DNA of 64,000 nucleotides from an uncultured Gammaproteobacteria bacterium (lineage in GTDB: Bacteria; Patescibacteriota; Microgenomatia; Levybacterales; UBA12049): the NCBI GenBank assembly GCA_965230895.1, contig OZ246394.1, positions 29,723 through 93,722 on the forward strand, read 5' to 3'. How positions within the stretch are numbered: position 1 is the first letter of the stretch; every line of letters starts with the position of its first letter. Positions 33,001 through 39,000 of this stretch are shown here, one piece after another. Position numbers: made by a program.

Positions 33001-36000
33001 ACAATTACCGTTCTCATGCAAGGCTAAATGTGGTAAAATACGCCTTTATGGAACTTGATAGAAGAGGTTTTGATAATGGAAAACCAGTAGGTAATGAAAC
33101 ACAGGGTTCATTTGGTCCCGGAAGTTCTGAATCCGTACCGGCAAGAACTCGGAAAGTTGTTTCCCCTGATAAAGTTGCAGGAAGAAACCGTCCAACTCCA
33201 GTGAGAAGACCTGTGGATCAAACTCCCCAAGAAACCCCAAGAGCATTTTTCAATATTGCGGAAAGATTAGGCTATCTTAGCCCTGAAGTTTGTTCTCTGC
33301 AGAGGGCACTTGATGCTGAGACCATTGACGTCGAACCAGATGGTGATGAAACAACTCCAGTACCGACAGCCTTAGACAATGTTATTGATCGGTTGGGCGG
33401 AGCGTTTACATTTGAAGCGCAGGCATTGCAGAGAGCAATGCTTCCTTCCGTGCCTGAACCTCCTGCACTTCCTGTAGCACCGAGTTCCAATAGACCGGCA
33501 ATCGAAGCAGTTGTGGGTAGTTTGGGAGGGAGTGAAACACCTGAAGCACAAGCACTATGGCGAGCCAACGAAGCTTCTGTACTGAAACCAGAAAGTAATG
33601 CTGAGCAATTGCCATTGCCTGAACACGGTGTCGATAAAATTGCTCCATTTGTTCAGACACATGGAAAAATTCACCCATCAGGAAGCTACCATAGCAATGC
33701 GAGTTTTGAGAATATAGACTTATACGTCAATCCGAGTACAGGTGATTTTATCGTAGTTGGTAATCAGCGAGCAAGAACAAAGGAAGATGATCCCACTACT
33801 GACTATGTAATTATTGATCCAGGAACAGGTACTCCTATAGCAGAGCCTGCTCGAACAATATGGCGCGTTAGCGAGAATTGGGTTGATACAAATGTAGGTG
33901 ATGAACGGAAAATGAAAGTTGTGGCAGCAGAAGATGCGGAAGTTCCTAATTGGCAGGATCGATTAAGATTTACAGAACCATATAAAAGATTTGACATTAC
34001 AGAACAACTTCCTACTCTGACTCCAGACGCATTGGTTGATCTTGCTGGTAGCATGGTTACTGATGGTGTACAACCTCGACTTGCACTGCGAGGTGTCATT
34101 GACGATGCTCGTGCGCAAGGCCATCAACCAAAACCAACAACGCCTCTCCGAAGTGATTTCAAGAAGAGTACCTTAAACCAACCGGAATACGCTCGACTCA
34201 ATCAGGTGCGAGTGGGACTTAACGCAACAGTACGTTTAGTTTCTTCGCTTATTCCTCGATCCGTTTTAGAAATGGAACAGCAATCATCTATTACTGACGC
34301 GCTCAATTTTGCTGCAGACGGATTTAAGAAAGAAGATTTTGCTGATTACAGCTATTGGACCGATGATCCCAAAACTGTTACAAATGTAGATATTGAAGAC
34401 GCACGTAACGCAGTGCGTAGATCACATGGCGAACTTTGGCAGCCAGAATCTTCGCCTAAGCAAACTATCATTGAAAATTACTTTGAGTACCTTATCACCC
34501 AGGCTGAAGCAAATGGGGGATTCATCACTGCTGATAAGATAAATGCAAAATTACTCAGCAGTGGATAAGACTTTTTAATAGAAAAGTCTTATAGTTTGTG
34601 GTAAACTACACGTGATGCCAAATAATAGAGAATCATTTGAAGGTAAGCATCCTGCAGGAGACGTCAGTAGGTCCTTTGGTCCGACTACTCCCGACGGATC
34701 TCCACCACCGCTGAGAAGAATTGTTTCTCTTAATAAAGGAGAAAGAGGTGGGTCTGTATCCGCTATGGGTATTGATAATGGTAGTATTGATGTACCAGTG
34801 ACTCCCCAGTGGTGGAGACAGCCAAGTGCACAGAAAGAGAACGACATACAAGCCAATCCAGTTGTAGATTTTGCACTTAAGCATGTTGAATCAGTTGATG
34901 ATCTCCATGCTGAAACAGTCGAAGACGGTGCAAAGAAATTAGAATCAATAACGTCTTCAGCTCTTCGTAATATATCACTTGGAGAACCAGTAGGCGTAGG
35001 AGGTATATTTGATGTTCATACTATTCCTGGAGAACCTGACCTCGTTGTAAAACGCTTAAAAGCTCAGCAAGAATATGTAACTGTCGCTGAGGCAGACGAA
35101 GGGTTTGAAAAGCTTAGAGCGCAGCATCAAAAGTTTGTAGAAGCCTTCGGAGCTGATCACGTTCCTGCAACACAATTTGCAAAAATTGAGGATACGGATT
35201 TTGGAGATGCGCATAGGATAGCGCTTAATGGAGGAGAAAATGCCTTTTTTGCAGGGAGAGAATATGTAATGGTCCAAGAGAAATTGAGAGGTCTCCAATA
35301 TCAAGGAGTAACTGAGGATACTGAAGCCACCTTAAGAGATGCTGTGCAAGGATCAAGTGAAACAATGCGAGATCAAGTCAGAAGTTTTATCGAAAGATAT
35401 CGCCAATCACCGGTTCATCCTGATACAAATCAAGTTGTTTTTGATTTTACAGATGAGAAGGTCAGCATTGTAGACACCAATGCACCTTCTTCTACTACTT
35501 ATTACACTCACTTAAATTCCTATCTGCAAAAACTGGATATTGATCCAGCAAGTATAGTAAGTCAACAGCAATTAGCAGATGTAGTAATTGCAAATGTTCC
35601 TGAATTTGCGCATTTACAAGGAAGACCATGGGTCGAAATACGAGATATACTTCGCCCACGGTCAAGCCTACCCGCTAAAGCAGAAGCCGCAATCAATAAA
35701 AAATACAAACATGAAGGACCTGGCTCTGAGGGGTATGGTGACGATATGAATTTCTTATTGAGCGGGCTTGAAGATTTTCCGCCAGAGGGTGATAACAGAT
35801 ATGTTAGGACGTTAATTGATATATTTAGACTTTAAGATTGTAATTTGTGATCATCTTTATTATCATTCATCAATGTTCTATGCTTGATATACTTAGCTCA
35901 TGAAAAATTATAGTTACGCATACCTCTCCAGATTGGAACGCAATTACCTCCATTTAGCTCTTAAAAAATACTTGGCTGGAATGATGTCAAGTTCAATTAT

Positions 36001-39000
36001 TTAAACCAGCAGATATTATTCCCAGCTATTGATAATTTCATCCTTAAAGATATATTAGAAATCGTGTAAAGGTAACCCAAATTGACTAGAAATATCTTAT
36101 AGTTTGTGATAAACTATAGTATGGCTATTGGAGAATCTTTTGATAGTAGAAGACCCTCAAATGGTGAGACAGGCGGAAGATCATTTAGTGCGTCTATTCC
36201 AGAGGGGACACCTCCACCTTTGCGAAAAGTTGTATCGCCTGATACACGAGGAACTGGTGGGATTTCCCATGCTGCAAGACGTGTTGTGCCTCTTCCATCT
36301 CCTGACAGAGGTTATACACGGAAACATACAATACCTGCAGAAATTTCCGGAAGTGATATTACTGTTCCTGTTATTCCAACTACAGATACTTCGCCTCCAG
36401 ATCCCAAGCCCCGTTATGTACAAGAAAGAGAATTAGGTCATACTGTTACGTCAGTTCGTAAAGATGCCCAAGCCGTTGCAAGGGGAGTAGTCAGAGGAGT
36501 TGATCCAGAGAATGAAATGGGAGCAGCTGAAAGAACGAAATTATTCAATGATGAATGGAAGAAGATAGCAAGACAGAATGATGGTTTTGTTCAAGCCAGA
36601 GATACTTTAGCAGCTGGCCGTAGTGATGCTGCTCAGTTTACAGCCCATACTCACGCTTTTGATCCAGATACGCGTCCTGATCTCGAACAAGCTGCATCGC
36701 TTGGCGTATTACAAGCTGCTGAGAATTTCGATCCTGAGCGGTCTCAAAACTTTTTTATGCTTGCTTCTTTATCAGCTCAAAGTGAAGTTAACAGTGTCAT
36801 AAGAGGACAGCATCCCATCCATGTACCTCAACATGTTTTCCCAGAAAGAAAACAAGTACATACCGTAAATGATGTTTTAACACAAGAGCTACAAAGAGAA
36901 CCGACTGCACAAGAGATTGCAGAGAGAATGCATGAAGGATCTGATACTGATATCGATCCTGAGCGTGTAAGGTTATTGCTTCATTCTCCGGTATTTGATA
37001 GACATTTAATTCCTATTGGGACGAGTGATGTAACTGAAGGTTATCCAGTAGTTGATGAGGAGACTTTGCCGGATCAAGGCCGCCCAGTTGAAGACCACGC
37101 ACTTGATCAAGTGGAACTGCAGGGATTGATCGACAATGCTGGACTAACAGAGACAGAGGCATATGTACTTTTTCAACGATACGGGGAAGATCGGGAGAAT
37201 GGAGATATTGGTCAAGAATTATTTTATACTCCCCAAAGTATATCTCTAATTTCTCATGTAGCATTAGCAAAAATTAGAAACGCTGCAGGAATTCGACCTG
37301 ATGAAGAATCTTCTCGTAAAGGACAGCCTGCATCCTCAGCAGTCCTACAACGGAGAGCAGAATATTTACAACAAATGCGAGAACTACTCGATCCAGAAGA
37401 TCCAAAACCAAATGTGAAAGAATTAGCTGAGCAATTAGGAGTTTCTTTACGGACAGCATATAACTATTTAAATGAAATTAGGAGAGATCAATAACTCATT
37501 TTAGAGTCTTATAGTTTGTGTTAAAATAGCCTATGGCAATAAATAGAGAATTTGATGGGAGAACTCCAATCGGAGGAGCTGAAAGAACTTTTAGCTCGGG
37601 CGTGGAGGGTGCACCACCGCCAGTACAAAGAATTGTTTCTTTACCGCAAGATGGCGCTGTCCGTGGGCGTCAGGAGCGAGAAGGTTTTTCATTTACGACA
37701 GTTACTGTGGCAGATGCTCAAAATAAAACCTTATTTCGTGGCAAGATGGCACCTATTCAATGGCAAGAACCTCAGCATACTGCAGCAGTACACACAACGC
37801 ATCCTGAAATAATGGCTTCAGTCTTTGCTGAAGGTCCTGCTGCTTTTGACAAGCTTGATACAGATGGAGTGTTGCAAGTAACGTCTGCGGATAGTCATGT
37901 CTTGCGTAGTTTTTGGTACGACAGTGATCGGCAGCTCGTGACAGTAGCTCGCGGGGTAGTTTTTTTCAGAGAAAAGATGGCTGAAGAAGATGTTGCGCCA
38001 ATTGAATTACCGTCTCCTCCAAAAGGAAGTTCTAATTCTCCTATTGAGATGAGTTCTGCCGTGGAATTTGAATTTAAAGAATCACCCCTATATAGAAAAA
38101 ATCCAAGGATACAACAATCCTTTGCTACATTGGGATTTGATATGGACGAAGCTCGAAGAATATTTCCAACACCCAAGAGTTTTGCTGCAACGTTAGACCA
38201 GCTTCGAGAGGCTGATACTTCAGGTCTTTATTATCCTGAAGTATCACTATTGCCAGTAAGCCAGATTGATGCGAAGCCTTATCTTGAATCCTATGCAGCG
38301 GGGAAGCATCCTGTCGGTACTCATGGTTTTTATCATTACACACATGATACATCTTCTGATCACGCTGGGACGCTTATGACATTTGGCAAAAATATGATGG
38401 ATCTTATCCAAGGATATTCTCAAGTCATTTTGGAACGAAGAGGTGATACAGTAACATTTGCAGATACAGAACCTATAGATATGTTTACTGGTTTGGCGGG
38501 GCTTGAGGATTTAGATGATATAAATAACATAGTTCCTCATCGTATCGTGCGCGCTCTAGAGGATGCTGATCGTTTAAAATCCACGAAGATAGCTCAATGG
38601 ATGCATGCAAAGGGTATGATCCATCGTTGGGATGAGCTTACCCCAGAAGTCCTTTCTCAAGGGCTTCGCGCGGAAGCAAAAGCGAGATTACATGATTACA
38701 ATAATGGAAGAAGATGAGCTATCGGAGCTTTGTTTTCGAAGCAAGAATTGATATACTTAGTTCATGAAAATTATTGTTACGCATACCTCTCCTGACTGGG
38801 ACGCAATTACTTCCGTTTGGCTTCTTAAGAAATATCTTGCTGGTTGGAATGATGCTGAAGTTCGATTCGTGCCAGCAGGGAATAGACTGTCCGGACAGCC
38901 AGATCCATCAACGACCAAACACAAAGGTGAAGATCCGATTGAACGAATTGGTGATGATGAGATTATCCACGTTGATACAGGACTTCTTCCATTAGACCAT

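Follow-up and report, generated by a model that had tools for sequence, protein, structure and literature searches.

A 22-nucleotide promoter cassette before three tagged genes of a saccharibacterial variable island, with a putative regulator site in its spacer

Why do three neighboring genes each begin directly behind a nearly identical 22-nucleotide (nt) sequence, and what might read it? The sequence, TCTTATAGTTTGTGnTAAAnTA, lies in a 64,000-nt stretch of contig OZ246394.1 (assembly GCA_965230895.1, positions 29,723 to 93,722), hereafter the window, and occurs there three times on the forward strand (starts 34587, 36095, and 37507), where zero copies are expected by chance. No match was found in 100 dinucleotide shuffles, and allowing up to three mismatches revealed no further site in the window. 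An initial annotation of this DNA had placed three promoter cassettes at these coordinates and on this strand, as a motif scan of the window confirms, and had assigned them the ATG codons at 34615, 36121, and 37533. These codons hold as well: independent gene calls on metagenomic contigs use the same ATGs and give g34615, g36121, and g37533 the lengths listed in Table 1, and protein conservation among the paralogues begins at the initiator methionine (M-x-x-N-R-E-S-F-D-G). The cassettes drive the last three of 17 tagged genes in a variable island described below.

The best explanation that we can offer, unproven and with a probability of about one half, is that each cassette combines a core promoter (its right half) with a family-specific putative regulator site, the 10-nt TCTTATAGTT, located in the promoter spacer.

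The right half of the cassette and the start codons

Each cassette ends in a -10 hexamer of the form TAnnnT (TAAACT in copies 1 and 2, TAAAAT in copy 3), with TG one base before the hexamer in all copies (TGTGg, TGTGa, and TGTGt, respectively). The ATG follows after 7, 5, and 5 nt; all three starts are ATG, and the linkers (ACACGTG, ATAGT, and AGCCT) contain no purine run resembling a Shine-Dalgarno (SD) sequence. The initial annotation was therefore right to describe an extended -10 (TGTGn plus TAAAnT) with no room for an SD sequence in the 5-7 nt that remain. The -35-like hexamers (TAGAAA, TAGAAA, and TTTAGA) each match TTGACA at four of six positions, over spacers of 17, 17, and 16 nt; the -35 signal of the clade is TTG at -23 to -21.

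This arrangement extends well beyond the cassettes. Of the 52 genes in the window, 26 have a -10-like hexamer whose end lies 5-9 nt from the ATG; the gap distribution peaks sharply at 6 nt, a peak led by housekeeping genes outside the island (such as rseP, proS, zwf, and frr); frr has the identical TAAACT hexamer 6 nt before its ATG. The same short spacing is present in the loci of three relatives (L079, L082, and L087). SD-like sequences were found before operon-internal genes only, e.g., ybaB (43508) and g30131.

We aligned 62 promoters other than the cassettes, taken from the window and from the loci of the three relatives, on their -10 hexamers. The resulting profile consists of TTG at -23 to -21 (i.e., a 17-nt spacer), T at -5 (33 of 62), TG at -3/-2 (T in 33 and G in 27 of the 62), and TATAAT; the rest of the spacer holds approximately 0 bits of information. 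The right half of the cassette, TGTGnTAAAnT, fits this profile exactly. The pattern TGTGNTAWAMT occurs six times in the window (0.6 expected), always 5-11 nt before an island ATG: in front of the three cassette genes and of g25038, g31299, and g33048, where the left element is missing (Table 1). The plainer TGNTAWAMT is also found before rseP and proS.

From these position statistics we infer the start sites, and each cassette would then be a complete core promoter of a leaderless single-gene mRNA; for g34615, a leaderless and monocistronic mRNA is predicted. A Pribnow box located 6-8 nt from the start codon is the signature of the leaderless "group C" genomes of GeneMarkS-2, a group that covers Actinobacteria and Deinococcus-Thermus (Lomsadze et al. 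2018, PMC6028130). The locus resembles these genomes in that the cassette -10 ends 5-7 nt before the ATG, without an SD sequence, as is the case genome-wide for first genes; it differs in belonging to a saccharibacterium (Patescibacteria, or candidate phyla radiation, CPR) and in that its start sites are deduced from sequence. Because leaderless mRNAs appear to be the genome-wide default, the lack of an SD sequence at the cassettes is not specific to the island. The promoter of the initial annotation thus stands as an extended -10 next to the ATG, although this design is no peculiarity of the island, given that housekeeping genes have it alike.

Extended -10 promoters, with their "-16 region" (TRTGn), are known from Gram-positive bacteria and Escherichia coli. 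The cassettes share with them TGTGnTAAAnT in combination with a weak -35 and a 16-17-nt spacer, and the right half is the same in kind; in contrast, the invariant 10 nt just upstream fall outside the TRTGn motif. To our knowledge, almost nothing is known of transcription signals in Patescibacteria/CPR. Applying the -10/ATG rule to other genes in the window shifts several start codons, e.g., g20474 to 20483, g13079 to 13118, g33030 to 33048, and g31281 to 31299.

The invariant left element and its possible readers

The left half, TCTTATAGTT, occurs three times in the window, in the cassettes only, against 0.11 expected. It occupies -15 to -6 relative to the -10 hexamer, i.e., it lies in the spacer, approximately -27 to -18 from the predicted start. 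The cassettes are identical to one another at 20-21 of 22 positions, compared to only 13-16 of the 40 positions that precede them. The three loci begin to resemble one another abruptly at TCTT (about 13 nt earlier for copies 1 and 2), and the likeness is lost in the 5-7-nt linker, which differs in sequence and length. The N-terminal coding DNA of the cassette genes is about 60-65% identical, and protein identity is about 42%; third-codon identity of the adjoining homologous coding DNA is 0.36-0.50, with synonymous sites near saturation, so the paralogues are old. The cassette genes are no closer to one another than to g31299, which has no left half. Judged by these comparisons, the likeness of the cassettes exceeds what chance and shared ancestry would provide. 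Selection on a discrete element is the simplest reading, because ancestry alone cannot hold ten non-coding bases invariant. Ordinary gene conversion is disfavored, because a 22-nt tract between diverged flanks is too short for it.

Selection of this kind could operate without a dedicated regulator. The 22-mer might be a particularly strong constitutive promoter variant. Its left half would then owe its persistence to selection acting on the spacer sequence, on DNA shape, or on promoter strength, or else to very local gene conversion among the tandem paralogues. Adjacent paralogues do share a promoter flavor (g22231 and g23121 have TAGTATACT; g31299 and g33048 have TGTGnTAnAnTACG), and with so weak a -35 the spacer and the extended -10 could count for strength. 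The homologues in locus L093, a European Nucleotide Archive (ENA) contig that is the only relative found with this gene family (42-54% amino-acid identity), also lack the left half. However, the other 62 promoters carry no spacer information, conversion that depends on homology would have to act on a very short tract between diverged flanks and beside linkers that differ in sequence and length, and the recurrence of the element's core in inverted orientation and at other distances does not fit a role in spacer shape. We regard a constitutive variant as unlikely, while still deserving consideration.

This core, a 9-mer, recurs outside the cassettes. The initial annotation had already listed CTTATAGTT at 13066, and it is indeed there, upstream of the tagged gene g13118. 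In L093 the core (CTTATAGTT/AACTATAAG) is found inverted in front of gene 2, which is g34615-like, where it precedes the -10 by 16-24 nt. Two of the 15 family promoters outside the cassettes thus contain the 9-mer, for which a post hoc test gives an expectation of 0.023 and P(>=2) = 2e-4; the independent case in L093 alone has P ~0.003. The recurrence suggests a putative regulator-binding site, and since distance and orientation vary, a transcription-factor site fits better than a sigma contact. Copies of the left element with one mismatch are not enriched overall. One of them, the inverted TCTTATAGAT (27973-27982, minus strand), stands in front of the tagged gene g27992, at 9 nt from its ATG, where it overlaps the putative -10.

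The initial annotation tentatively attributed the shared sequence to a common regulator or island sigma factor that reads AGTTTGT plus the -10. Its related sites exist: ACAGTTTGTTATAAT is present, at 10060-10074 rather than 10058, and the minus-strand site is confirmed at approximately 16907-16924. However, AGTTTGT alone occurs 14 times in the window, against 11.8 expected, which is chance frequency. Relative to the -10 it is found at -9 to -3 in the cassettes, at -7 to -1 at 10060 (before g10087), and at -11 to -5 at 16917 (before g16881); with three different registers, it is not a positional element. Its TTTGTG part belongs to the generic T-x-T-G-n extended -10 consensus of the clade, and the resemblance between the sites stems from the T-rich TRTGn region. 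Given the chance frequency, the shifting register, and a -10 of the housekeeping type, this attribution is not upheld.

An island sigma might also recognize the cassette as a whole. In this alternative, g36121 or g14560, an extracytoplasmic function (ECF) sigma, would autoregulate and drive its neighbors. The island does contain these two sigma-family genes, one of them behind a cassette, and alternative sigmas commonly autoregulate, a habit that counts in favor of the idea. As in autoregulated alternative-sigma loci, g36121 shares its upstream element with the genes on either side; the difference is that there are three separate transcription units here, that the shared element is not at -35/-10, and that the sigma is highly aberrant. 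The specific element sits in the spacer, 5-6 bp from the -10 and not at -35, and no consistently spaced upstream element accompanies it. The cassette -10 and extended -10 conform to the housekeeping consensus, and the cassettes show none of the fixed -35/-10 elements unlike that consensus by which alternative-sigma promoters would be recognized. AGTTTGT is unenriched and changes register, and the 9-mer is found in both orientations.

The protein g36121 itself adds to these objections. It consists of the tag, a sigma2-sigma3-sigma4 core, and an additional HTH_11 domain at the C terminus (residues 418-455). Its alignment to SigA extends over regions 2.1 to 4.2, but the conserved aromatic residues of region 2.3 are missing; because MLASLSAQ replaces the YATWWIRQ expected there, canonical melting of the -10 is doubtful. 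Its score is far below every NCBIfam cut-off (66.8 bits vs. 234), and its best family match is a phage sigma PHROG (82.7 bits). A search of 5.8 billion proteins returned g36121 itself and remote RpoD-type matches only, and a tblastn search against phages gave generic sigma2-sigma4 similarity for g36121 and nothing for g37533. The ECF sigma g14560 (14560-15417) has the same kind of N-terminal extension, about 120 amino acids (aa) long. Its best NCBIfam match, below the cut-off, is actinobacterial SigE (PRK09647, 110 bits), and there is no in-frame ATG after its TATAAT. On balance, recognition of the cassette by an island sigma seems distinctly improbable.

The symmetry reported in the initial annotation was confirmed, both for the perfect 8-bp inverted repeat TATAGTTT-N5-AAACTATA in copy 2 and for the 6-bp repeat in copy 1. 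When the sequence is read directly, the dyad is retained at 8/8 positions in copy 2, 7/8 in copy 1, and 5/8 in copy 3. Perfect inverted repeats of at least 6 bp that span the -10 were found in only three of 66 promoters, two of which are cassette copies. A dimeric repressor site over the -10 is plausible from this pattern. Palindromic operators over the -10 or spacer, bound by dimeric helix-turn-helix (HTH) repressors, follow LexA-, Cro/CI-, or TetR-type logic. The cassettes resemble them in that the element falls inside the RNA polymerase footprint and is common to adjacent co-directional genes, in the 8-5-8 dyad of one copy, and in a core that occurs in either orientation; they differ in that invariance is confined to the left arm, the -10 itself serves as the right arm, and copy 3 is a poor dyad. 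As in an operator, the site recurs at several promoters of the family independently of the core-promoter register: the three cassettes, g13118, and, inverted, L093 gene 2. We recognized no operator consensus known to us as matching the cassette. Bacteroidetes TAnnTTTG, integron attC, ECF GGAAC-N16-CGTT, and NrdR, Rex, and Fur boxes were rejected by inspection.

If the cassette is a core promoter with an operator in its spacer, the housekeeping RNA polymerase holoenzyme would read the weak -35, the 16-17-nt spacer, TGTGn, and TAAA(C/A)T, and transcription would begin with the A of the ATG, to within 1 nt. TCTTATAGTT, which in copies 1 and 2 forms a dyad with the -10 region, would be a binding site or half-site of a sequence-specific DNA-binding protein. 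The genes g34615, g36121 (sigma-like), and g37533 would come under joint control of this protein, which would most likely occlude the extended -10 and the -10 and so repress them. The extra C-terminal winged-helix HTH of g36121 is one candidate for the binder; as pure conjecture, the trio would then be autoregulated.

Several points weigh against this explanation. The motif counts cover 64 kb of a 1.61-Mb genome, and the 9-mer was tested post hoc. Looser matches to the left half show no enrichment (75 found, 82 expected). The dyad of copy 3 is poor, and no compensatory changes were seen across the copies. Small HTH genes are absent from the island, where the only HTH candidates are g36121 (HTH_11) and g14560. 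At 5 nt, the gaps of copies 2 and 3 are about as short as a start at the A of the ATG would allow. The literature that we searched contains neither mapped transcription starts nor promoter studies for Saccharibacteria, and no published remark on leaderless transcription in the phylum. The homologous promoters in L093 keep TTTGTGGTAnAnT or TGTGGTAAA and have no left half in register; at 42-54% protein identity, this absence is weak evidence either way.

The dyad could instead act in RNA, as a hairpin in read-through transcripts or in a short 5' untranslated region started from an upstream TATAGT, with terminator, attenuator, or translational control as the outcome. Copy 2 does fold into a 10-bp hairpin (-5.8 kcal/mol, z -2.7), TATAGT matches TATAAT at five of six positions, and a strong hairpin precedes copy 1. 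The fold is not conserved, however: copy 3 is unfolded (0 kcal/mol), and copy 1 adopts a minimum-free-energy structure in which its dyad plays no part. The cassettes lack a GC-rich stem and a U-run, a terminator scan found nothing at them, and TATAGT has neither TG nor a -35 at any of the three copies. An Rfam search over 9-42 kb gave no match. Action at the RNA level therefore appears most improbable. The hairpin before copy 1 is formed by an 11-bp perfect inverted repeat (Table 1) that runs from the stop codon of g33048 into the left edge of the cassette and has no equivalent at copies 2 and 3. It is possibly a terminator of g33048, packed against the next promoter. A terminator overlapping the promoter was rejected as a general feature of the cassette, as it applies only to this extra hairpin at copy 1.

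Table 1. Coordinates (window numbering) of the cassettes, their parts, and associated features
Feature	Position	Strand	Remarks
Cassette copy 1, TCTTATAGTTTGTGGTAAACTA	34587-34608	+	left element 34587-34596
Copy 1 extended -10 and hexamer, TGTGgTAAACT	34597-34607	+	7 nt to ATG 34615
Copy 1 weak -35-like TAGAAA	34579-34584	+	17 nt before -10; register from clade profile
Cassette copy 2, TCTTATAGTTTGTGATAAACTA	36095-36116	+	left element 36095-36104
Copy 2 TGTGaTAAACT	36105-36115	+	5 nt to ATG 36121
Copy 2 weak -35-like TAGAAA	36087-36092	+	17-nt spacer
Copy 2 dyad arms	36098-36105 and 36111-36118	+	perfect 8 bp
Cassette copy 3, TCTTATAGTTTGTGTTAAAATA	37507-37528	+	left element 37507-37516
Copy 3 TGTGtTAAAAT	37517-37527	+	5 nt to ATG 37533
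Copy 3 weak -35-like TTTAGA	37500-37505	+	16-nt spacer
g34615, 406 aa	34615-35835	+	N-terminal tag and orphan C-terminal part
g36121, 457 aa	36121-37494	+	tag, very divergent sigma-70-family core, C-terminal HTH_11
g37533, 394 aa	37533-38717	+	tag and C-terminal domain as in g28827 and L093 gene 3
Fourth copy of 9-mer core, CTTATAGTT	13066-13074	+	43 nt before ATG 13118 of tagged g13118
Right half without left element	25016-25026	+	before ATG 25038
Right half without left element, TGTGtTATACT	31280-31290	+	8 nt before ATG 31299
Right half without left element, TGTGgTAAAAT	33029-33039	+	before ATG 33048
11-bp perfect inverted repeat, ATAAGACTTTT/AAAAGTCTTAT	34565-34592	+	hairpin -16 kcal/mol, z -2.9
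Degenerate, frameshifted duplicate of g38764 promoter and 5' end	35884-36000	+	original 38748-38865
Variable island, 17 orphan tagged genes	10087-38717		between proS and DHH-like gene

The variable island and its tagged proteins

The prolyl-tRNA synthetase (ProRS) encoded at 7960-9192 shares 75-77% identity with proteins labeled Candidatus Saccharimonadales or Saccharibacteria and has relatives at 94, 89, and 85%; by these identities the window is part of a TM7/Patescibacteria (CPR) chromosome. Housekeeping genes border the island: frr, rseP, pgl, zwf, gnd, and proS before it, and the DHH-like gene, HIT, ybeY, dnaX, ybaB, prs, and recR after it. In L082 (ProRS 85%), only two small genes lie between proS and the DHH-like gene, followed by HIT and dnaX. 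Because L082 lacks the block, 10087-38717 (about 29 kb) is a true variable island. L079 (94%) and L087 (89%) contain entirely different gene sets at the same site (compared over window positions 9193-41217), and the island proteins of L087 share an analogous but different N-terminal motif, SLAPPE..GIQAL. In searches against Pfam (E<=5), NCBIfam, and PHROGs, all island proteins were orphans except the two sigmas and an ATPase. This large FtsK/HerA/VirB4-like ATPase (about 1,180 aa; 16943-20473, minus strand) lies among the tagged genes and has a DUF87/HerA P-loop domain with faint similarity to TraD and VirB4. The first ~114 codons of its listed 1,290-aa open reading frame overlap g20483 on the opposite strand and look spurious. 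A blastn search against plasmids gave no match.

So variable a setting raises the possibility that the cassettes mark recombination joints at which units of promoter, tag, and variable body are shuffled or inserted. Island content is wholly different between relatives, the genes of L093 are mosaics whose N-terminal and C-terminal parts correspond to different paralogues in the window, and copies 2 and 3 sit on a 2.86-kb unit between direct repeats of the 5' end of g38764. The upstream repeat is a degenerate duplicate of about 115 nt (83-96% identical), located inside the 285-nt spacer before copy 2; the two repeats are 2,863-2,864 nt apart and bracket copy 2, g36121, copy 3, and g37533. To judge by their sequence, they are the footprint of an insertion or duplication. 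However, the bracketing repeats are g38764 sequence and not cassette, and no integrase, recombinase, or transposase was detected in the window. By inspection against their consensus forms, the cassette is unlike attC sites or terminal inverted repeats, and its position is tied to the ATG, as it would be for a promoter. A role as recombination joint is thus very unlikely.

The cassette is private to this lineage. A scan for CTTATAGTTTGTGNTAAA (18 nt of the cassette, 17 specified bases) in one genome for each of 185,579 species, a collection that does not include the source genome, returned 69 single matches in unrelated taxa, as expected by chance, and no genome with two or more copies. In the JGI metagenomes the full cassette had two single chance matches, in unrelated contexts and with no ATG downstream. 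Logan contigs from the same population are 100% identical and so carry no information on polymorphism. In L093 (1752-1800), the 5' end of the g37533 homologue reads TGTGGTAAA followed directly by TAATAGAGAATCATTTGATGG and matches the copy 1/g34615 region 34597-34643 minus the 15 nt CTACACGTGATGCCA. Without these 15 nt, the homologue has a single start left, a GTG within what was the extended -10.

The 17 consecutive island proteins all begin with a common tag of about 45 residues, M..NRE.F..G...RSF....EG.PPP..RRIVSP, and continue into unrelated bodies (tag-coding examples: 34615-34752, 36121-36264, 37533-37664, 31299-31442, 22231-22365, and 25038-25190). RR[IV]VSP is often repeated in the tagged proteins (three times in g25038). 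When 1.84 billion representatives were searched exhaustively with HMMER, a profile of the tag recovered the eight training proteins and one further protein; outside this genome, only L093 matched. A word-index search with a 16-sequence tag profile gave no significant match, its own members included, the profile being too short and diffuse. We found no description of the tag in the literature that we searched. AlphaFold2 models were unusable (mean predicted local distance difference test scores of 38 for g34615 and 36 for g37533 with g28827); in these low-confidence models the first 55-80 residues are assigned coil. The C-terminal domain of g37533 is 31% identical to that of g28827 (28827-30128) and 46-54% identical to that of gene 3 of L093. 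Between g28827 and g37533 (37533-38717), this domain has many invariant aromatic and His/Asp positions, e.g., H..Y.HD...H; it was assignable to no family or structure.

Actinobacteria are the usual hosts of Saccharibacteria. In one speculative scenario, in which we place little confidence, the tag would direct the export or delivery of effectors to an actinobacterial host, the sigma-like ones would reprogram host transcription, and the shared operator would switch on the last three genes together, e.g., on host contact.

Significance of the locus

The cassette is an ordinary kind of object, a promoter with a putative operator, in one lineage, and its general importance is modest. The tagged-protein island is the more unusual feature, and should the tag prove to serve in delivery, the island would amount to an inventory of the effectors of an episymbiont. 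The 10-nt element is a specific, testable candidate for the first cis-regulatory site in Patescibacteria/CPR. The promoter model for this one clade of Saccharibacteria (TTG, 17 nt, T-x-T-G-n-TATAAT, about 6 nt, ATG) implies widespread leaderless mRNAs, and it could aid start-codon calling and the design of expression constructs in these newly tractable episymbionts.

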